64,000 bases of DNA from Candidatus Eiseniibacteriota bacterium (lineage in GTDB: Bacteria; Eisenbacteria; RBG-16-71-46; DASYSL01). Positions within the stretch are counted from its first letter, which is position 1, and each line of letters begins with the position of its first letter. Below are positions 16,925 through 54,802 of the stretch, piece by piece. The notes beneath the pieces were generated by a model that did not search any database, was not told where the DNA came from, and worked only from the letters and a program-made list of their open reading frames with translations. A program made the position numbers and the translations under genes. Location of the stretch: assembly GCA_031413115.1 (NCBI GenBank), contig JANOEH010000024.1, forward strand, positions 336 to 64,335, given 5' to 3'.

Positions 16925-17324
16925 CGGTCCGACCCTGCGCCTCCCGACGGTCCGGGCACGGACCATCCAGGAAGACCAGACTCGCAAGAATCACGCCCGT
17001 GTCTCACGGTGGGGAAGTCCGCCGGGCTTCCGTGTGATCCCTACCCTTGTTTCCGGGCACTTTCAGCCCGCTGCGAGGCGTACCTCAGGAAGTGCGAGAT
17101 GGACCCGTTCCCTGACTCGATGACCGGGTTGACCGCCAGCTTGGCAGGCAGCGCAATGCTCACTACTTCCATGACGCGGGAAGGGCATGGCGGCATCTGC
17201 GCAAAGTCGCCCGTACCGTCAATGCGCCGCATTGCGTCGATGATCCCTTCGCCGGAGTGCTACACTTGTTGCCCCGCCGGGCTTGAGCGAACGGCTCCGG
17301 TCGCACGAGCATCGCGGAGGCAAC

Positions 17325-18215
17325 ATGGCTCGACATCACGGATTCGCCGGCGCGATACGTTTCCGGGCGGTTGCCGGCATCGTCCTGGCCACGCTCCTGG
17401 CGGCGGGCCCGGCGCTCGGCGCTTCGAACACGATCCTCATCACGGAAGTCGAGGCCGATCCGGTCCAGCTCGGCTTCGACTCGCCCTTCGAGTGGTTCGA
17501 AATCCAGAACATCAGCGACCAGACGCGCACGCTCACGGACTGGACGATGGCCGACAACCAGGCCTCGGACGCGCTCCCGACGATCGTGCTCGGGCCCGGG
17601 GAATGTGTCGTTCTGGCCACGAACGGCTCGAACTTCAGCACATCGCATCCGGGCTATTCCGGGAGGGTCGTCCAGGTCGGAAGCATCGGCGCCGGCCTCG
17701 AGAACGCCGCGGACTTCATCGTTCTCCGGGACGACTTGGGGACCGACGTCGACTGCGTCTCCTGGGGAACGAGCACGACCTGCTTCAGTCCCGCAGCCGC
17801 CGTCCCCGCGGCGAACACCGCCGTCACCCTGCAGCGTGCATCGACGGTGGACACGGATTCCGGTGCCGATTGGGCGAGCAACACGAACGAGACTCCCTGC
17901 CCCGGGGCCGTCGGCGTGTCGGATCCGCATTCGAGAGTCGGTGGCCCCCGCATCACCATCACCCCGAACCCGGGCTTCGGGCGGACCACGATCTCATGCT
18001 CCGGTGTCGCCGCGGGCCCGTTGGTGGTCGCGATCCATGACGCCACGGGGCGACGCATCCGGACGCTGCGCGACGAGGGCTCAGTATCGACGCGGAGCAT
18101 CGCCTGGAATGGGCTCGACGAGCAGGGCCGCGCCGTCCCCGCAGGATTCTATCTCGTCACCCTCCCGAAACGCCTCGGGGCGCCGGGGGCGGGACGATTC
18201 CTCCTGCTGCGGTGA
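17325..18215 (+). CDS. Lamin-tail-domain (LTD) protein with C-terminal FlgD-Ig/T9SS-type sorting-like domain
   Basis: Signal peptide; ILITEVEADP...FEWFEIQN...LTDWT matches LTD; C-terminus ...ITITPNPGFGRTTIS...GRRIRTL...WNGLDEQGRAVPAGFYLVTL...RFLLLR resembles FlgD Ig-like/Por_Secre_tail. Confidence 0.75.
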   Translation: MARHHGFAGAIRFRAVAGIVLATLLAAGPALGASNTILITEVEADPVQLGFDSPFEWFEIQNISDQTRTLTDWTMADNQASDALPTIVLGPGECVVLATNGSNFSTSHPGYSGRVVQVGSIGAGLENAADFIVLRDDLGTDVDCVSWGTSTTCFSPAAAVPAANTAVTLQRASTVDTDSGADWASNTNETPCPGAVGVSDPHSRVGGPRITITPNPGFGRTTISCSGVAAGPLVVAIHDATGRRIRTLRDEGSVSTRSIAWNGLDEQGRAVPAGFYLVTLPKRLGAPGAGRFLLLR

Positions 18216-18369
18216 CCGGAGTCCCGGGCGACACGCCACACCGGATCCTGCCCCCGCGACCACCCAGCAGGAAGGCGAGATCCTCCTCGGTGAGGATCTC
18301 CTGCAGCCTCCTCCCAGATTTGACGCAGATGATCCCCCTGCTCCGGGGGCATTGCCCTAGGGTCAAACG

Positions 18370-20037
18370 ATGAATCCTACGATCCGCGTGCCTGCCGCCC
18401 TTCGATTCGTCGCATCTCTCGGCCTCCTGCTGATCCTCGGGGCCTGCTCCGGCTCTTCCCTCGACCAGGCGAAGCTCCAGCCGCGGGTGACCCGGCTCGT
18501 CGAAAAGCCGAAGGAATCCGTCGCCGGGGAGACGCTGCTCCAGCGCGACGCGGTCATCGCGTTCTACCAGGCGCGCAAGTTCAAGCCTGCCTGGGACCTC
18601 GGTCCGGGTGCGGCCTCGATCCGCGAGGCGATCGCCGGGATCGGGCAGGACGGCCTCGATCCCGACGAGTACCACCTCGCGCGGATCGACTCGTTGCTCG
18701 CGCGGCGCAAGGAGCAGCGCACCGACGAGCGCGACGCGGAACTCGAGATCCTGTTCAGCGATGCCGTCGCGGGGATGATCGACCACGCGCGGTACGGTCG
18801 CGTCCTGCCGGCCTCGCTCGACAAGCACTGGAACGTCGATCCGCGCAAGGATGCGCCGCCGATCGCCGCGGCGCTGGCGCGCGTGGCCGAGTCGGTGTCG
18901 CCGGCCGCGGGGCTCGAGAAGGAAAAGCTCGATCACTTCATCTATGCCGGCTTGAGGGGCGAGCTGGACCTGCTTTCGAAGGTCGCGCAGCACGGCGGCT
19001 GGGCGGCGATTCCCGTGGGCAAGGCCCTCGTGCCCGGCACTCGCGATCCGCGGATCGCCCTCGTTCGCGCGCGGCTCGCCGCGACCGGGGAGCTGCCGCA
19101 GGGCACGGCGACGGTGGACGACTCCGTCGGCTACGACAGCGACCTCGCGGCGGCGGTGAAGGGCTTCCAGACACGGCATCGCCTGATCGATGACGGAAGG
19201 CTCGACGCCGGCACGCTCGCCGCAATGAACGTCTCGGTCGAGGACCGGATCGACCAGGTGAAGGTGAACCTCGAGCGTTCGCGCTGGGTCCTGCCCGGGC
19301 TCACGGCCGACTTCGTGCTGGTCAACCTCCCCGCGTTCAAGGCCTACCTGATTCGTGACGGCAAGTCCGTCTGGGAGTCGCGCACGCAGATCGGCAAGGA
19401 GGCGCGCCAGACGCCCATCTTCCGCGCCGACATGAAGCAGGTGATCTTCAACCCGACGTGGACGGTGCCGCCGACGATCCTGGCCGAGGACGTGCTGGGC
19501 GGGATCGCACGCGGCGAGGACATGCTGGCGAAGAAGAATCTCAAGGTCTACGACGGCGATGGCAACCTCGTCGATCCGAAGTCGGTCGACTGGAAGAACG
19601 CGACCGCGGGAAACTTTCCCTACACGCTGCGCCAGGACGCCGGCCTCGACAACGCGCTCGGTCGCGTGAAGTTCATGCTGCCGAATTCGTACAACATTTA
19701 CCTGCACGACACGCCCAGTCGCGAGCTGTTCGCCTCCGAGGAGCGCACGTTCAGCTCGGGCTGCATTCGGCTCGAGGATCCGATCGGATTTGCGAAGCAG
19801 CTCCTCTCCGACCAGGGCTACGATGATGCGAAGGTCAATGAAGTCATCGCGACGGGGGAGACCAAGGCGGTGGACCTGACGACACCGCTTCCGGTGCTCA
19901 TCGTCTACTGGACGGTCAGCGTGGGCGCGTCCGGCGAGGTGCGCTACGGGCCCGACGTCTACGACCGCGACGGCATGATCCTCGCAGCGCTGTCCGCGCG
20001 ACGGGGGCTGGTCGCCGCGGCGGCACCGGCGCGTTGA
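18370..20037 (+). CDS. L,D-transpeptidase family lipoprotein (YcbB-like, PG-binding + YkuD domain)
   Basis: 555 aa; lipobox LGACSG; peptidoglycan-binding-like repeat (LAAAVKGFQTRHRLIDDGRLDAGTLAAMN); catalytic HDTPSRELF...SSGCIRL motif. Confidence 0.9.
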   Translation: MNPTIRVPAALRFVASLGLLLILGACSGSSLDQAKLQPRVTRLVEKPKESVAGETLLQRDAVIAFYQARKFKPAWDLGPGAASIREAIAGIGQDGLDPDEYHLARIDSLLARRKEQRTDERDAELEILFSDAVAGMIDHARYGRVLPASLDKHWNVDPRKDAPPIAAALARVAESVSPAAGLEKEKLDHFIYAGLRGELDLLSKVAQHGGWAAIPVGKALVPGTRDPRIALVRARLAATGELPQGTATVDDSVGYDSDLAAAVKGFQTRHRLIDDGRLDAGTLAAMNVSVEDRIDQVKVNLERSRWVLPGLTADFVLVNLPAFKAYLIRDGKSVWESRTQIGKEARQTPIFRADMKQVIFNPTWTVPPTILAEDVLGGIARGEDMLAKKNLKVYDGDGNLVDPKSVDWKNATAGNFPYTLRQDAGLDNALGRVKFMLPNSYNIYLHDTPSRELFASEERTFSSGCIRLEDPIGFAKQLLSDQGYDDAKVNEVIATGETKAVDLTTPLPVLIVYWTVSVGASGEVRYGPDVYDRDGMILAALSARRGLVAAAAPAR

Positions 20038-29596: not shown

Positions 29597-31066
29597 CTAG
29601 TCGGCCCGGCGGACCCGCCCGCGTTCGATCACGCGCACGCCGATCGCCCGATCGGTACAGAAGATGTCGCTCACCTCACGCTGGTTGAAGCCGGCCCTCC
29701 AGGGGGCCTCGCCCGCGGGGGGCGCCGCCAGCGCGCTCGAGACCGCCTGGTTCCACTGCACGACACACCGGCTCAGGTCGAAGCGCAACCGGCTCTTCGC
29801 CTGTTCGAGCAATTCGTCGAGCGCTGCCCGCAGGGCCATGGCTTCCCCCGCCGGCACGAGGTCCTCCACCGCCTGGCGCGACTCCTCACTCCAGGCGAGG
29901 TCGGGGAGCTCGAGGGCGAAGTCGGGCTCGGCGCAGTGCACCTTGCCGACGAGGAATGCGCGGCCGGTCAGGGCCCCCTCGAGCTCGAGCTCGAGGGCGA
30001 GGCGATCGCGCGCGCCGCGCACCGTTGCGCCGGCCACGCGGAGCGATTCCCCACCGCCCGTCCCGATGGGGGCCGCGATGCCGACCAGGCGCGAGGCGAT
30101 CTCCGCGAAGTCCACCCAGCAGTCGACCGGCACGTACGTGTCGGAATCGAACAGTCGCTGTGTGGGCGCCCCGGGGAACTCGACCGCGGTCCCGTTCGCG
30201 CTCGGCAGGATCGTCGGAGCGGCTTCAAACGCGAGATCGATGACCAGCGCGTCGCCCTCGAGACGGGGGCGTTCGGCGCGAACCTCGCCCGGGCGCCAGT
30301 GCAGCCACGCCCCGCCACCCAGCCGCACGGGCCGGGCGAGCCCGGCGTGCAGCGCGTTCACCCGGGGCGCCAGATCGGTGGCGGCCGTGAGCGAGTCGAG
30401 GGTGGGAAGGAGGTGCGCGATGAACCGGCTCTTGATGCGATCGTCGACCAGCTTGGTGAAATTGATGGCCGGGGGCCTGGGTTTGCAGCGCGTGGGGTAG
30501 ATCACCGCCAGCGGACTGCTGCGGGATTCGAGGCGCCAGCCCTCGCCCCAGGCGAAGCGGGTCATGACGCCCACCAGGCCGGTCAGCGAATCGGCCTCGA
30601 CGCCGCACGACGTCGGGGCGAAGCCTTCGCCCTCGATGTCGAGTCGGTAGTGGACGGTGGTTCGTGTATAGAGCGTGTCGCCCCGGGGATCGCTCGCGAG
30701 GCTTCCCCGCAGGATCGGCCCACGCCAGCGCACTCCGGCGCGGGCGGCCTCGCGCTCCTCTTCTTTCCAGACTTCCTCGGGCGTCACCTGCTCCGCGATG
30801 CCGGCGGCGCGGATCTCCCGGGGAAGGAGGCGATCGAGTTCGTGGCGGTACGCCTCGATCGGTACGGTGAGCCGCGCCTGCAGATAGGAGCGCGGCGTCG
30901 CCGCCGGGCCCTCGCCCGGAGGAAGGGTGGGGGGAGCGACCGCGGGAAGCTGCAGCGCGGCGGCGCGCCCGCTGTCCGGGCGCCCGAGCATGGTGATTCC
31001 GGCGAGCACGAGAAGGCGCACGAATGCCGTGCGCGGGCGCGAATGGCTTCGGGAGATCGACGACAC
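29597..31066 (-). CDS. DUF4403 family exported protein
   Basis: ~489 aa from GTG 31066 (GGAGGG upstream; start uncertain); signal-like N-terminus; no catalytic motifs recognised. Confidence 0.6.
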   Translation of the reverse strand: MSSISRSHSRPRTAFVRLLVLAGITMLGRPDSGRAAALQLPAVAPPTLPPGEGPAATPRSYLQARLTVPIEAYRHELDRLLPREIRAAGIAEQVTPEEVWKEEEREAARAGVRWRGPILRGSLASDPRGDTLYTRTTVHYRLDIEGEGFAPTSCGVEADSLTGLVGVMTRFAWGEGWRLESRSSPLAVIYPTRCKPRPPAINFTKLVDDRIKSRFIAHLLPTLDSLTAATDLAPRVNALHAGLARPVRLGGGAWLHWRPGEVRAERPRLEGDALVIDLAFEAAPTILPSANGTAVEFPGAPTQRLFDSDTYVPVDCWVDFAEIASRLVGIAAPIGTGGGESLRVAGATVRGARDRLALELELEGALTGRAFLVGKVHCAEPDFALELPDLAWSEESRQAVEDLVPAGEAMALRAALDELLEQAKSRLRFDLSRCVVQWNQAVSSALAAPPAGEAPWRAGFNQREVSDIFCTDRAIGVRVIERGRVRRAD

Positions 31067-31170
31067 GTAGGAGGGCCCTCCGGCGGTACCGGCTACAACA
31101 GGACGAAGGGGGCGAGCTTCCGCCCCCTTCGCCGGTGTGCGACGCGGCGGATCATCCCGCCGCGAATCGA

Positions 31171-31986
31171 TCAACGATAGTTGTTCTTGATGGTGCCCCA
31201 GCTCGACCGCAGCGCGGGCGTCGAGGGCGGGCACTGCCTGCAGCTCGGCACGATCACTCCGCCGATGGCCGCGCACTGCCCGACAGGCAGCGGCGCGCAG
31301 GTGTAGACGCCGGCAGGGTCCACCGTGCAGCAGAGTTCCTGGTTCGGCGCCGAGAGCAGGTCCGGGGCTTCCGGGCCGTCTCCGGTGGGATAGTTGACGA
31401 CGTCAGTCTGACCATCGTTCTGCCAGGTGTGGTACCACCCGGTGCTGATCGTGACGAGGCGCGGCAGGGTCGAGAACGAGTAGACCTCGGTCTGGCCCGG
31501 GAGCGTGCCACCGCCGACCCCCGCTCCGCCCGAATTGGTGAGATCCCACTCGACCGGCAAGCCCGAGCAGCAGCCAATCAGCCACGGGCCGATGCCATCG
31601 GGAGCGGTCACGTTCGCGAGGTCGGGGACGGCACCGGGAAGCGCGAGCTCGAAGCCCGAGAATCCGTTCGACGACCCAGGGTTCGGCTCGAACCCGCCGT
31701 TCGTCACCGTGTACACCCACTGGTACTTGGTGAAGTCGCCGAGGTAGTTGTTGAAGACATCCACCTTGATGACCACGCCAAACGGATAGAAGTGCGTATT
31801 CGAGAAGATCGGCCCGCCGTTCGGCTGGACGACACCGGACCACTTGACGGCGTCCGCATCCGGTGGCGAAATCTGGGGCGGGTAGGATGCGGCAAGGATC
31901 GGCCCGGCGAAGGTGACCAGGAGCAGCGCAGGGAGTGCGAGCGTGCGGACCAATCGACGTGCAAAGAGCTGAAGCATTGGAGGCAT
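31171..31986 (-). CDS. Secreted Cys-rich protein ending in SSWGTIKNNYR tail
   Basis: 271 aa; signal peptide; 8 Cys incl. CC pairs; weak GEVED-like GQTEVYSF; C-terminal dodecapeptide shared with ORF 42188..43120. Confidence 0.65.
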   Translation of the reverse strand: MPPMLQLFARRLVRTLALPALLLVTFAGPILAASYPPQISPPDADAVKWSGVVQPNGGPIFSNTHFYPFGVVIKVDVFNNYLGDFTKYQWVYTVTNGGFEPNPGSSNGFSGFELALPGAVPDLANVTAPDGIGPWLIGCCSGLPVEWDLTNSGGAGVGGGTLPGQTEVYSFSTLPRLVTISTGWYHTWQNDGQTDVVNYPTGDGPEAPDLLSAPNQELCCTVDPAGVYTCAPLPVGQCAAIGGVIVPSCRQCPPSTPALRSSWGTIKNNYR

Positions 31987-42187: not shown

Positions 42188-43120
42188 TCAGCGATAGGTG
42201 CTCTTGACCCGTCCCCACGACGACCCCGCGCTCGGGGTCGCGGCCTCGATGGCGAAGGGGTAGTCCTCGGTCTCGCCGTTTCGAATCTGGCCACCGGGCA
42301 TCGCCGCCGTGCCGTTCCACGGGAAGTCGACGCCGACCGGTTCCTGCGAGATCGAGATCCGCGTCCACGCCGGGCCCACGTTCGGCCCGACGAGAAATGC
42401 CGGCGAGACCATCGAGTTGCAGCCGGGCAGGAGCGTGATCGGATGATTGCGCACCGCCCACTCCCATGCGCAGCCGCCGGTCGGCGGGGGGCAGGTGAAG
42501 TTGTCGTTCCAGTCCCCGTCGGTGTTGAAGTCGACCAGGATGTTGAGGAAGCCCTGCGCCACCGCATGACAGCTGTACGCCTCGTACGGGACCGTCGCGG
42601 GAGTGCAGGCCACGAACGTCGGTTGGGCCAGCAGCCCCGCGTCGGAGCCGTCGGCGAGGCACTCGTCCTGCTCGAACGAAAGCGGCGGATATCCCGGAGT
42701 GACACAATCGGTGGTGATGGCCGGATTGCAGGACGAGGCGCCCCCGCCGAACGGGTTCGTCTTGCCGTCGGCATCGTCGTCGATGCCCATCGGGCCGGTG
42801 TAGCACCCCAGCCAGAAGCTCCCCGGTACGGCGAGGAAGTGCTTCACGTACCCGGTCGGCCCCGGCGGGGAGCTGACGGCCGGGCAGGTGATCGTCTGGG
42901 TCCCGACGCCGCCGGGTAGCGAGCAGGTCGGGAAGTTGCCGATCGCACTTCCCGCCCAGGTGGGATAAGCGGTGAAGCTCTCGGGGGCGTCGCCCCAATC
43001 ATCGAGAAAGCGGAGGCAGTCGTCCGGGCCGTCGACGTCGGTCGCGGCAGCGGGGGGGGCCAGGAGGGTCGCCAGCACGAGCAGGCTCAATGCGGCGAAC
43101 CCGAAGCGATGAAAGGACAT
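42188..43120 (-). CDS. Secreted Cys-rich GEVED-like protein ending in SSWGRVKSTYR tail
   Basis: ~310 aa from ATG ~43120; signal peptide MSFHRFGFAALSLLVLATLLAPPAAA; 12 Cys; FPWNGTAAMPGGQIRNGETEDYPF resembles GEVED domain; C-terminal tail as in 31171..31986. Confidence 0.65.
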   Translation of the reverse strand: MSFHRFGFAALSLLVLATLLAPPAAATDVDGPDDCLRFLDDWGDAPESFTAYPTWAGSAIGNFPTCSLPGGVGTQTITCPAVSSPPGPTGYVKHFLAVPGSFWLGCYTGPMGIDDDADGKTNPFGGGASSCNPAITTDCVTPGYPPLSFEQDECLADGSDAGLLAQPTFVACTPATVPYEAYSCHAVAQGFLNILVDFNTDGDWNDNFTCPPPTGGCAWEWAVRNHPITLLPGCNSMVSPAFLVGPNVGPAWTRISISQEPVGVDFPWNGTAAMPGGQIRNGETEDYPFAIEAATPSAGSSWGRVKSTYR

Positions 43121-51495: not shown

Positions 51496-51823
51496 TCATG
51501 ATGCCTCCTCCTCGAACGAGCGCGCGAATGCCGCGAGCGCATCGGTCCACATGCGATCGGCGTACTCGCGAAGCGCGGCGATCCCGGTGGGATCGGCCGT
51601 GTAGATTCGGCGACGGCCCTCGGCGCGCGCTTGGACGAGCCGGGCGCGCCGGAGCACGGCGAGATGCTGCGAAACAGCGGGCTGCGACACCCCGAGCCCG
51701 CGGGTCAGTTCGCCCACAGAATGCGGCCTCCGGCTGACCCGCTGGACGGCCCCCCCCGGCTCCGTGCTACGCTTGTCGGGCCCATTCGAGGATTTGAGTC
51801 CCCCAAGGACGGTTGCCGCTCAT
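51496..51823 (-). pseudogene. ArsR/SmtB-family wHTH regulator, apparently disrupted (frameshift/insertion at G8 tract)
   Basis: Open frame from GTG 51717 encodes only recognition helix+wing (GELTRGLGVSQPAVSQHLAVLRRARLV); putative N-terminal 18 codons (ATG 51823, MSGNRPWGTQILEWARQA*) lie in +1 frame before TAG; C8/G8 homopolymer at 51750-51757 between them. Confidence 0.4.
51750..51757. repeat. C8 (G8 on minus strand) homopolymer tract inside disrupted arsR-like gene
   Basis: Eight consecutive C at 51750-51757; lies between the two reading frames of the arsR-like fragments. Confidence 0.6.
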
Positions 51824-51835
51824 TCCGGGAGTCCC

Positions 51836-54802
51836 ATGAACGGTTCCATGCCGCCTCGGCGATCGCCGCGAGTCCTTCGTATCCCGCGCGCCGCCGCCAC
51901 GCTCGTGCTGATGTTCTCCCTCGTGCCGGCGCTGCTTGCCGCTTCGACCGGTCCCGACGATCGCGTGCTTGCGCCGATCCCGCTGCCGGTCCTGCGCCCG
52001 GGATTTCCGATCACGGCCAGCACGATTCCCTTCACCTACCCGCCGGTGATGGCCGACCTCGACCTCGATGGTCGCTCGGAGATCATTGCCATCGACGACG
52101 AGGGCAAGATTTTCGTCGTCCGCAACGACGGCGCGCGACACGGTGCATTTCCCAAGACTCTCGGTGTGCCGCCCAGCGGTCCGATCGCAGTTGGAGATGT
52201 TGACGGCGACGGCTTTCTCGAACTCGTGGCGGTCGGGATCAATGGGCGCGTGAGCATCTTCAGCGACGAGGGAGCGATCGAGGCGGACCTCGCCCGCCTC
52301 CCGTGGGCGCCGGTCGGCGCCGCCGTCCTGACCGAGTTCGACACCAGCGGCAAGCTCGCCATTCTCGTCGTTACGGCCGACGGCACACTGCATGCGCTGC
52401 GCGGCGAGGGCGGGGAGTTTCCGGGCTGGCCGGTGAACGGAAGCGCGGTCGCCGCGTCACCACCCTTCGCCTACATCGGCCCGGACAACTTTCCACGGGT
52501 CGGCTACCTCGGCGCCGCGCCGGATCGGGCGCAGATCTTCTTCACCTACGGCGACCTCGACACCGTGGCGTCTTACACGCCGACGTCGCCTTTCTCGGCG
52601 GCGCGACCGGTCGCGGGCCTGCGCGCGATGTCCCTCGGTTTTACCGACGCCGAGCACCAGTACACGTTCACCAGGTCCGGGAAGCTGACGCGGCTCGATC
52701 CCGACCTGCTGAACGGCGCGACGGTCGTGACGCCGCTGGCGCAGCTCCCGGACGACAGCGTCTTCGTCCAGCCCGCGATGATGGACGCGAACGGAGATCT
52801 CGTTCCCGAGCTTGCGGTGCTGAGCGTCCGCGGCGATACGACGCAGGTGTGGCTGCTCGACGGAGCCACCGGGAATCCACTTACCGGATTCCCGCGCCGG
52901 TATCTCGAGGCGCAGCCCGTCGGCGGAATCGTGTGCGCCGACGTGGGGGACAACAACGCGGCGGAAATGATCTTCAACCGCGGCGGTTCGCGCATCTCGT
53001 GCGTGCGCACGAACGGCACCGAGGCATGGACGCTCGGGGGACTTCCGTCGATCGGCGGTCCGGCACTCGGCGATCTCGACGGGGACGGTGGTCCCGACCT
53101 TGCGGTCGTCACCACGACGGGCAAGATCTACGCTTACACGCTGGGTCTATCGGGGACCGGGCCCAGGGCGATGGAGTGGACGAACGCCGGCGGATCGCCG
53201 CGCCACGAAGGGCGCCACCAGATGCGCGATCGCGCCGTCGTCCACTCGTTCTGGCCACCGCCGATCACGCCGGCGGATGCGTTCGTCACGCGGCCCGTGA
53301 TGGGCGGGTTCGACGACGATGGTCGTCCCGACGTCCTGTGGAGCGACTACCTGACGGGCAAGACCTGGGGGTTCGCCGTCGGCGCCGGTCCGATGCCCGG
53401 GATGCCACAGACTTACGGACGGGGCGCCGTGCTCGACGCGCCCGCGGTCGGAGACGTCACCGGCGACGGCATCTATGAAAGCGTTCAGGGCACGGCCCAG
53501 GGCTACCTGGTGTGGGGCAATCGCACCGGCACGACCGACTTCATGCTGATCGACAACGGTCGACAGCTTTCCCCACCGTCGCTGGCGGACCTCAACGCCG
53601 ACGGCGTGCTCGACGTGATCGTCGGCTCGAGCACGGGACGCCTCTACGCGGCGAACCTGAAGACCAAGACGCTGCTCCCCGGGTTCCCCGTGACGACGAC
53701 CGGCGCGATCGTGTTGCCGGCCGCGCTCGGCGACGTCAACGGCGACGGGCAGACCGACATCGTGGTGGTCGGCGGCCCGCGCACGATCTACGCGTATCCG
53801 CGCACCGGTGCGACGGCGCTCACGGGCTGGCCCCGGCAGTTCCCCTCGGGGCATGCGCTCGGGCAGCCGATCCTCGTGCCGATCGCGGGCCAGTCGGGCC
53901 TGTGCGTGGCATTCGCCCGCACGACGGGTGTCGACTCGGTGACCGCGAGCGTCGTCGGCGCGAGCGGGGCGCCGTTGCCGGGCTGGCCGCGGCGGCTCTT
54001 CAATGCGCTCAACATCCTGAGCGGCCCGGTGGCCGGGCCGTTCGACAACGATGCGAGCGTGGATCTCGCCTTCGCCACGGGCGGCGACACGGTGATCGTG
54101 TTCAACGCGATCGGCAATAGGTTGCTCACCAAGGCCCTGCCCACGCCGGGCAGCATCGAGCTCGCCGCGATGGTCGACCTCGACCTCGACCTGCGCCCGG
54201 ACCTGGTCGTGGTCAGCGACGAGTCGGTGATCATCGGCCTGCGCTACGACGGCCTCACCGTGCGTTCATTCACGCGGTTGCTGTTCGGGTTCGAGGCTGG
54301 TGCGACCCCGGCGTTCGGCGACCTGGGCAACGACGGCATCCTCGACATGGCGATCAGCGACCTGGGCTTCCCGCTCGTCTACTCGTGGGGCCCGGGCTCG
54401 TGGAACGGGAACACGGCGCCGTGGCCGATGAAGGGGCACGATCGCTACCGCACGCATGCCTACTCCGGTCCGACCGTGATCGGCGTCGACGGCCCGGGAG
54501 CCGCGGGTCCGCCCGCCCGCGGCACGGGCGCGGTCCGCGCCGTTCCGAACCCGACGCAGGGTGCGGTGGCGTTCGCACACACGCGCGCGCTCGCCGGCGC
54601 CTACGAGGCGGCGATTTTCGATGTACGTGGACGGCGCGTCCGCACGCTCGCGGCGGGGACGCTGCCCGCAGGCGGCGAGGCGGTGACGTCGACGTGGGAT
54701 GGCCGCGACGAGGCAGGGCACGAGGTGCAGGCGGGGATCTACTTCTACCGCGTGCGCGATGCGGCGGGGACGCTCGGCGAAAAGGTCGTGCGCCTGCGTT
54801 GA
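51836..54802 (+). CDS. Large FG-GAP/VCBS-repeat beta-propeller protein with C-terminal FlgD-Ig/T9SS-type domain
   Basis: ~988 aa; signal peptide; many DxDGDG/FG-GAP-like repeats (GDVDGDGFLELV, GDLDGDGGPDLAV, GDVNGDGQTDIVV...); C-terminus VPNPTQGAVAF...FDVRGRRVRTL...WDGRDEAGHEVQAGIYFYRV...KVVRLR. Confidence 0.8.
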   Translation: MNGSMPPRRSPRVLRIPRAAATLVLMFSLVPALLAASTGPDDRVLAPIPLPVLRPGFPITASTIPFTYPPVMADLDLDGRSEIIAIDDEGKIFVVRNDGARHGAFPKTLGVPPSGPIAVGDVDGDGFLELVAVGINGRVSIFSDEGAIEADLARLPWAPVGAAVLTEFDTSGKLAILVVTADGTLHALRGEGGEFPGWPVNGSAVAASPPFAYIGPDNFPRVGYLGAAPDRAQIFFTYGDLDTVASYTPTSPFSAARPVAGLRAMSLGFTDAEHQYTFTRSGKLTRLDPDLLNGATVVTPLAQLPDDSVFVQPAMMDANGDLVPELAVLSVRGDTTQVWLLDGATGNPLTGFPRRYLEAQPVGGIVCADVGDNNAAEMIFNRGGSRISCVRTNGTEAWTLGGLPSIGGPALGDLDGDGGPDLAVVTTTGKIYAYTLGLSGTGPRAMEWTNAGGSPRHEGRHQMRDRAVVHSFWPPPITPADAFVTRPVMGGFDDDGRPDVLWSDYLTGKTWGFAVGAGPMPGMPQTYGRGAVLDAPAVGDVTGDGIYESVQGTAQGYLVWGNRTGTTDFMLIDNGRQLSPPSLADLNADGVLDVIVGSSTGRLYAANLKTKTLLPGFPVTTTGAIVLPAALGDVNGDGQTDIVVVGGPRTIYAYPRTGATALTGWPRQFPSGHALGQPILVPIAGQSGLCVAFARTTGVDSVTASVVGASGAPLPGWPRRLFNALNILSGPVAGPFDNDASVDLAFATGGDTVIVFNAIGNRLLTKALPTPGSIELAAMVDLDLDLRPDLVVVSDESVIIGLRYDGLTVRSFTRLLFGFEAGATPAFGDLGNDGILDMAISDLGFPLVYSWGPGSWNGNTAPWPMKGHDRYRTHAYSGPTVIGVDGPGAAGPPARGTGAVRAVPNPTQGAVAFAHTRALAGAYEAAIFDVRGRRVRTLAAGTLPAGGEAVTSTWDGRDEAGHEVQAGIYFYRVRDAAGTLGEKVVRLR

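Follow-up and report, generated by a model that had tools for sequence, protein, structure and literature searches.

Two exported proteins encoded in a 64,000-nucleotide stretch of contig JANOEH010000024.1 from a Candidatus Eiseniibacteriota bacterium (the window, by which the whole stretch is meant) end in a common peptide tail of about 10 residues, and we can conclude that this tail is a modular, terminal tag of exported proteins which is interchangeable with two surface-anchoring or secretion signals. The tag is apparently uncatalogued, and its architecture differs from that of every known C-terminal sorting signal. As to its function we tentatively favour, at somewhat below an even chance, that it is a portable, extreme C-terminal tag for retention at or sorting to the cell envelope, which would dock non-covalently onto a conserved envelope partner.

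The original prediction had been that the two proteins, here called protein 1 and protein 2 (Table 1), share a C-terminal tail while being otherwise unlike, and this has been borne out by a regular-expression search, shuffled sequences and profile comparison alike. Protein 1 ends in PSTPALRSSWGTIKNNYR (longer stretch CPPSTPALRSSWGTIKNNYR) and protein 2 in ATPSAGSSWGRVKSTYR (longer stretch IEAATPSAGSSWGRVKSTYR), and as the stop codon comes at once in both, it is also correct that no hydrophobic helix follows the motif. When all six frames of the window were searched with the expression WG.[IVLMF][KR]..[YFW], matches were found at these two tails only, both abutting the stop codon, and the degenerate codon pattern WSNTGGGGNNNNRTNAAGNNNNNNTAYCGNTRR has two matches in the window against 0.00 expected from 100 shuffles. 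Both BLASTP and a profile-profile comparison of the two families confine the alignment to the last 17-19 residues (hhalign E 6.4e-6, residues 254-271 of protein 1), and the bodies of the two proteins are unrelated by either method. Synonymous sites differ between the two tails (GGC/GGA, CGT/CGC), which are therefore not copies of one DNA element. Both open reading frames (ORFs) are real and have the high guanine-cytosine (GC) content at third codon positions that is usual for this window of 68% GC, and the ATG start of protein 2 at position 43120 agrees with orthologues of 310 residues. The description of both proteins as Cys-rich needs to be narrowed, since it is apt for protein 1, which has a Cys-rich linker directly before the tail, whereas the cysteines of protein 2 are found in the body and none of them near the tail. 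Pfam GEVED matches protein 2 of the window weakly (E 0.29) and is annotated in its orthologues, and a Pfam/NCBIfam scan of the full-length proteins at E<=1 gave no model on the tails and none otherwise relevant.

The tail is kept at the extreme C-terminus in about 190 homologues of the two proteins. The pattern W-[G]-x-[IVLM]-K-x-x-[YF] is found 0-4 residues from the C-terminus in 86 of the 115 protein 1 homologues and in 106 of the 120 listed for protein 2, and a protein 1 subgroup of about 215 residues that lacks the Cys-rich linker still ends in ...TWGxIKSL.., PKTWGAIKSLNL or similar. Orthologues thus conserve the tail and, given these homologues and the some 200 further ORF ends described below, the motif is not confined to the two proteins, these being the two points on which the original prediction depended. 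Furthermore, at least 21 more distant homologues of protein 1 have PEP-CTERM (PF07589) in exactly the position of the tail, and six homologues of protein 2 have instead of the tail an FlgD_ig (PF13860) C-terminal domain (CTD) of about 85 residues, of the type used by type IX secretion systems (T9SS). In the protein 2 alignment the passenger ends in GETEDYPxxI, and 8-10 residues further on either the tail or the CTD starts. The tag is, in other words, exchanged one-for-one with a T9SS-type CTD or with PEP-CTERM in homologous proteins. That the tail might be a remnant upstream of the CTD is ruled out, since the CTD-bearing homologues of protein 2 lack the tail and no ORF has a tail followed by a CTD. 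Similar swaps of tail and CTD among LTD and beta-helix proteins are valid at the domain level only, the BLAST links within that cluster running via the CTD. It may be added that the beta-sandwich body of protein 1 (residues ~57-210; P0085-P0115) behaves like a "choice-of-anchor" domain, with the tail in close and PEP-CTERM in distant homologues.

Spread, carriers and sequence of the tag

Codon patterns were used for a scan in which each GTDB species was represented by one genome, which gave at least 119 stretches (859 kb), and for a metagenome scan of independent contigs with other, low-GC codons (AAA, AGA), which gave 94 stretches; all counts on loci, ORFs and lineages of the genome sample refer to the matches listed (L001-L119). 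Beyond the homologues, about 200 further ORFs end in the tag, and the motif search of related genomes proposed by the original prediction accordingly finds it on many unrelated exported proteins. Judging by the information content of the genome pattern, we estimate that about 70 chance matches would be expected, spread across all phyla. Among those listed, one from Nocardia is a chance match, with TGG in place of the "stop", and one is a contig of 2.6 kb that bears the label Limnocylindria; the remaining loci are all from metagenome-assembled genomes (MAGs), and no other is titled with a well-studied phylum. The named MAGs are mainly Candidatus Eisenbacteria, with further ones from Latescibacterota, Krumholzibacteriia, Zixibacteria, Fibrobacteraceae/Fibrobacter sp., Gemmatimonadota and Effluviviaceae, while about half are titled only "bacterium". 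Among these matches the tag is confined to a set of related, mostly uncultured lineages. A relaxed protein expression matched 174 times in the 859 kb, 158 of the matches lying 0-3 residues before a stop; the others are chance matches in a wrong frame, a small number of tails that run on for 4-8 residues, and a single fusion between tandem paralogues. In the metagenome scan 77 of the 94 stretches are true ORF ends, on contigs with a GC content of 0.27-0.69 (28 below 0.45), and they give the same logo as the genome sample.

Two groups of metagenome loci may be mentioned separately. A tagged protein of about 238 residues ending in ...QP[MT][SF][VI]QNRSWG[RS]IKSIYR recurs on contigs with a GC content of 0.35-0.41, several of them of digester type (L141, L143, L153, L173, L175, L177, L195 and L214), with conserved flanking ORFs of 611, 670 and 255 residues. 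In L168 (284..1602, plus strand) adjacent ORFs have variants of the tag, ending in SSTWGKIKQEYR and in a shortened SSTWGKIKSF, and a neighbouring ORF ends in ...RKMLIVK, which is like a T9SS CTD.

The consensus in both samples is P-[VT]-[PAS]-[VT]-[EQR]-x-x-[ST]-W-G-x-[IV]-K-[AS]-[LIM]-Y-R-COOH, where W, G, K, Y and R, the [ST] before W and the [IV] at +3 relative to W are of invariant type. Positions that the patterns left unconstrained are conserved as well in both samples, i.e. L/I/M at +6, A/S at +5, E/Q at -4 and P at -6. The terminal residue is R in 96-99% of the tails, the Lys at +4 is close to 100% conserved and almost never Arg in orthologue sets free of forcing by the search pattern, and the last nine residues have a net charge of +2.2. 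On the DNA level wobble bases vary and conservation ends at the stop codon, so that it is the peptide which is under selection. So exact a signature as W-G-x-[IV]-K...Y-R suggests that the tag is recognised specifically.

AlphaFold2 (AF2) models from deep alignments give a beta-sandwich with strands within residues 59-234 and a tail helix at 260-270 for protein 1 (pLDDT 83.8), and a tail helix at 302-309 for protein 2 (pLDDT 91.9). In both models an unstructured linker is followed by a short terminal helix outside the fold, itself predicted with moderate pLDDT (~60-66). The tag is carried on a flexible linker, rich in Pro and Thr, which follows the last folded domain. A Foldseek search of protein 1 against PDB gave no significant match, the best being generic pilin- or adhesin-like Ig sandwiches (E 0.012). 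In 42-50% of the carriers a Cys is found 6-14 residues before W, shortly ahead of the Pro-rich lead-in, where 18-20% would be expected (about 2.3-fold); it is optional and absent from protein 2. The carriers are also Cys-rich for bacterial exported proteins (~2.3% Cys).

The 142 ORFs with a tail in the genome sample fall into 79 BLAST clusters. By a crude heuristic, which is not SignalP, 111 of 137 carriers have a signal-peptide-like N-terminus compared to 181 of 616 control ORFs, and a lipobox is found in only 4 of 142. About 100 of 139 carriers lack any Pfam domain, and the remaining ~40 have Beta_helix/NosD, LTD, PD40, MAM, Chlam_PMP, NHL, TED, Cleaved_Adhesin, Big_1, PPC and CBMs, which is a repertoire usual on surface or secreted proteins. 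Several tagged loci are found per MAG, as are two tags in the window, and arrays of tagged tandem paralogues are common, with seven within 8 kb in L069 and four in L056. Proteins with FlgD-type CTDs are also encoded in 42 of the 119 loci.

A HMMER search with a 16-position profile against 1.84 billion representatives, which surfaces the best scorers only (17 at E<=1e-3), returned mostly proteins with several copies of the tag. P0239 has four tandem copies at the C-terminus and P0244, P0246, P0247 and P0255 have two, whereas P0243, P0245 and P0253 have one copy just after the signal peptide and one at the C-terminus, and P0242 and P0249 are two-domain duplications with the motif after each domain. 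Most of these belong to one lipoprotein family that has no Pfam match. This family of ~230 residues (P0239, P0242-P0247, P0249, P0253 and P0255), with one to four copies of the motif and weak DUF4440/NTF2-like hints, forms arrays of up to seven tandem paralogues (L069 1649..7850, MAG F1F2.bin.167), and the last gene of the L069 array ends in ...EIKDLYR, lacking W-G. Another HMMER result, P0240 (653 residues), consists of many repeats of ASPSSWGRVHRG, LALFLGASSSR and RPLPGGEFIEA, which resemble three frames of one DNA repeat; it is probably a CRISPR-like array called as a gene by mistake and unrelated to the tag.

Comparison with known C-terminal signals

Eight 45-residue tails compared to Pfam/NCBIfam at E<=10 gave nothing relevant, a profile search of PDB with the tag gave nothing below E = 1.8, and a search of 8 million papers and preprints for the motif strings and the topic found nothing relevant to the tag. 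A paper on Fibrobacteres (PMC4814513) mentions only ordinary Por domains. Criteria for tripartite C-terminal sorting signals have been given by Haft (bioRxiv 10.1101/2023.06.07.544157), and five of the seven are found in the tag: it is C-terminal (158 of 174 matches within three residues of the stop, 94% ending exactly at R), it occurs several times per genome (two in the window, several loci per MAG, up to seven in the 8 kb of L069), no fewer than three of its residues are invariant (W, G, K, Y and R), most of its carriers have signal peptides (by the heuristic counts above), and many of its members are not homologous to one another outside the tag (79 clusters among 142 ORFs, with hhalign aligning the tail only). 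The two features that are missing are the transmembrane segment, since W is followed by just eight residues, two of them charged, and then the stop, and the basic cluster of two to five residues, mostly Arg, in place of which there is a single terminal R and the K at +4.

The tag resembles PEP-CTERM/exosortase signals, as well as LPXTG, GlyGly-CTERM, MYXO-CTERM and PGF-CTERM, in being a short C-terminal signature that is found on many unrelated proteins with signal peptides and several times per genome. It even takes the place of PEP-CTERM in the protein 1 family and has a Pro-rich lead-in, P-V-P-V-E, before the signature. Since it has no transmembrane helix and no Arg cluster, however, the known mode of action of an intramembrane sorting protease cannot apply to it, and no cognate enzyme was found in 213 loci. 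The assertion that the tail is not an exosortase, sortase or GlyGly-type signal is in agreement with these two absences.

It was likewise right to set the tail apart from T9SS CTDs, since it has neither the fold nor a match to any of their hidden Markov models (HMMs), which are of TIGR04183, PF18962 or PF13860 type. A T9SS CTD (type A or B, here FlgD_ig, PF13860) is similarly found at the C-terminus of Sec-exported passengers of surface type, in the same lineages and the same genome, since proteins with such CTDs are encoded both in the window and in the loci counted above; it is an alternative to the tag on homologous passengers, where it starts at the same residue, and it too ends in a basic residue, three hydrophobic ones and a final basic one. 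A CTD is however a folded beta-sandwich of 70-100 residues which is cleaved by PorU, while the tag has at most 17 residues and fits no CTD model; AF2 predicts it as a short helix, and its copies may be tandem or N-terminal.

Braun lipoprotein (Lpp) of Escherichia coli, a small coiled-coil lipoprotein of Gammaproteobacteria, ends in ...YRK with the Lys last and is tethered to peptidoglycan by L,D-transpeptidases. The likeness to the tag lies in an extreme C-terminal basic and aromatic motif with a Lys and a Y-R dipeptide, and the multi-copy carriers are also lipoproteins, but the Lys of the tag is fifth from the end and R is terminal, most carriers are not lipoproteins (the lipobox being rare outside the multi-copy family, which is an exception) and the passengers look extracellular. 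Docking helices, such as the secretin S-domain with its pilotin or the amphipathic anchors of PBP5/6 and MinD type, share with the tag a disordered linker followed by a terminal helix of 10-20 residues. The amphipathicity of the tag is however not significant, it is found on dozens of families and not on one, and no pilotin-like partner is known for it. Nor is it a beta-signal, in which a terminal aromatic residue closes a barrel, since its terminal residue is Arg and its passengers are soluble beta-sandwiches, beta-helices and propellers.

Possible functions of the tag

According to the reading we favour, the passenger would first be exported by Sec, whereupon the basic and aromatic segment of about nine residues, predicted to be a short detached helix, would dock non-covalently on a conserved envelope component, which may be a receptor, a shuttle protein or an envelope polymer such as lipopolysaccharide (LPS) or peptidoglycan. 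The passenger would thereby be sorted to the envelope or surface of the cell, or be retained there, a role that on homologous passengers falls to the A-LPS anchor which a T9SS CTD leaves behind or to that of PEP-CTERM, and additional tandem or N-terminal copies would raise avidity. Non-covalent docking is favoured because copies of the tag can be tandem, internal or N-terminal. Several observations nevertheless weigh against this reading. No partner, receptor or sorting or processing enzyme was found in the window or in the 119 and 94 neighbourhoods of the two scans, and the envelope location of the passengers is itself a prediction. The hydrophobic moment of the last nine residues is not significantly above that of shuffled sequences, whether they are treated as helix or as strand. 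The multi-copy proteins come from a search that rewards copies and mostly belong to one lipoprotein family, and they are perhaps unrepresentative. In addition, nothing follows the final R in 94% of the tails of the genome sample, which is stricter than a sticky peptide needs and is a hint that the free C-terminus is what is recognised, much as it would be in a true terminal signal, and the preference for Lys over Arg at +4 hints at chemistry or very specific recognition and not at charge alone. An amphipathic helix or strand serving as a membrane anchor was also considered and is unsupported, given the hydrophobic moment.

The original prediction had taken a conserved tag of this kind as usually signalling a dedicated sorting, processing or recognition system. 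This is in part sustained by the modular nature of the tag and its swaps with PEP-CTERM and T9SS CTDs, but neither enzyme nor receptor to go with it was found in the window or the 213 loci, and we favour recognition over a dedicated processing system, as tandem and N-terminal copies fit binding at least as well as cleavage. A true terminal secretion or sorting signal, which a dedicated machine would recognise by its free ...IKxLYR-COOH and afterwards remove or modify, is rather unlikely, though it is the main rival. Such a machine might be a T9SS-related route, in which the tag would mimic the last strand of a CTD, or a new sortase-like system, and the very strict extreme C-terminal position, the one-for-one exchange with T9SS-type CTDs and PEP-CTERM and the five features shared with tripartite signals would all be expected of it. 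Every named carrier lineage listed furthermore has FlgD-type CTD proteins nearby, the genome of the window has both, and the CTD end [RK]-h-V-L-[LV]-[RK]-COOH is loosely like K-[AS]-L-Y-R-COOH. This likeness however spans just three to four positions, the T9SS signals known are folded domains of 70-100 residues while the tag has at most 17 and no HMM match, internal, tandem and N-terminal copies cannot offer a free C-terminus, and the neighbourhoods examined contain no candidate enzyme.

The near-absolute conservation of the Lys at +4 and its failure to be swapped for Arg would also be explained if it were the nucleophile of a covalent cross-link made by an envelope transpeptidase, either an L,D-transpeptidase with peptidoglycan as the target, as in Lpp, or a transpeptidase of PorU or another type with some other surface molecule as the target. 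The final Y-R recalls the Y-R-K of Lpp, most multi-copy carriers are lipoproteins with the Lpp-like topology of an N-terminal lipid and a C-terminal Lys motif, and the window has a gene for a YcbB-like L,D-transpeptidase, though such enzymes are common. We nonetheless regard a cross-link as improbable, since the Lys is not C-terminal as it is in Lpp, lipoboxes are found in so few carriers, no enzyme is linked to the tag, and the passengers (beta-helix, CBM, adhesin-like, GEVED and LTD) as well as the swaps with CTD and PEP-CTERM point to the cell surface and not to the periplasmic face of the wall. Equally improbable is an element that needs no partner, such as a cap against tail-specific proteases, a degron or a self-association peptide, for instance by pairing of N- and C-terminal copies. 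The short, detached and predicted helical nature of the tag and the presence of copies at both ends of some proteins would agree with this, and the enriched upstream Cys could staple the end of the passenger, but it would leave unexplained both that homologues have two different anchoring or secretion signals in its place and that the tag is precisely conserved across lineages with a GC content of 0.27-0.69. The extremely remote idea of a chance resemblance or of a translated DNA-level element, such as a repeat, a terminator or a cassette junction, has nothing but the shortness of the motif in its favour and is ruled out by the two matches against 0.00 expected, the ~190 homologues and ~200 ORF ends, the synonymous variation and the unconserved sequence after the stop; the restricted taxonomic distribution likewise disagrees with the ~70 scattered chance matches that we estimate.

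C-terminal tags have earlier led to envelope machinery such as sortase, exosortase, rhombosortase, T9SS/PorU and myxosortase. The present tag shows most of the bioinformatic traits behind such discoveries and lacks the transmembrane helix or the fold of the known classes, and whatever reads it must consequently work differently. It is conceivable, though doubtful, that it represents a new class of bacterial sorting signal, having neither transmembrane helix nor folded domain, which is read via its free ...IKxLYR-COOH by a dedicated envelope machine or receptor in Eisenbacteria, Latescibacterota, Zixibacteria, Gemmatimonadota, Fibrobacterota and relatives; a branch of type IX secretion, or a short-cut in it, could then serve as this machine, and the tag would be the mark of a large surface proteome, invisible until now, in these uncultured phyla. 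The tag is abundant in phyla known nearly only from metagenomes, where a 16-residue model could label many "hypothetical proteins" as envelope or surface proteins and provide a handle for phylogenetic profiling of the partner. Being small, it might also be of use for display or retention if its function is confirmed.

Genomic context in the window

As stated by the original prediction, two other proteins of the window have an FlgD/T9SS-type CTD, and neither of them has the motif (Table 1). One of them is an LTD protein, whereas LTD proteins elsewhere have the tail, and tail and CTD therefore coexist in one genome as alternatives at the domain level. The other neighbours in the window are unremarkable and include a TonB-dependent receptor, DUF4403, coiled-coil proteins and, 11 kb away, the YcbB-like L,D-transpeptidase.

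Table 1. Features of the window that bear on the tag
Feature	Position	Strand	Remarks
LTD protein with FlgD-type (T9SS-like) CTD	17283..18215	+	Pfam FlgD_ig
YcbB/LdtD-like L,D-transpeptidase	18361..20037	+	Scaffold + PG_binding_1 + YkuD; directly after the LTD-FlgD_ig gene
DUF4403 gene	29597..31102	-	directly downstream of protein 1
Protein 1	31171..31986	-	271 residues; signal peptide, beta-sandwich body (function unassigned), Cys-rich linker, tail
Tail of protein 1, SSWGTIKNNYR	31174..31206	-	stop codon at 31171..31173
Tag lead-in of protein 1, PSTPALR	31207..31227	-	Pro/Thr-type; logo positions -9 to -3 relative to W
Signal peptide of protein 1, MPPMLQLFARRLVRTLALPALLLVTFAGPILAA	31888..31986	-	read off the sequence; AF2 N-terminal helix 3-26
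Protein 2	42188..43120	-	310 residues; signal peptide, GEVED-like Cys-containing body ending GETEDYPFAI, short linker, tail
Tail of protein 2, SSWGRVKSTYR	42191..42223	-	stop codon at 42188..42190
Signal peptide of protein 2, MSFHRFGFAALSLLVLATLLAPPAAAT	43040..43120	-	AF2 N-terminal helix 3-20
Large exported protein with FlgD-type (T9SS-like) CTD	51764..54802	+	BLAST to CTDs

When 3,429 ORFs from the 119 loci and the window were clustered all-vs-all, nothing emerged besides generic families and the CTD they share, the recurrent neighbours being an ABC ATPase, a Ser/Thr kinase-TPR protein and a response regulator, and the paralogue arrays and low-GC loci likewise have no conserved neighbour linked to the tag. 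The pairing of protein 1 with the DUF4403 gene is conserved beside the orthologue P0032 (L120 10846..12312, on a 1.7-Mb contig), but it is specific to the protein 1 family and has no link to the tag. Between the stop codon of protein 1 and the DUF4403 gene there is a GC-rich inverted repeat, AAGGGGGCG-GAAG-CTCGCCCCCTT, which resembles a terminator hairpin (~31105..31140, minus strand).

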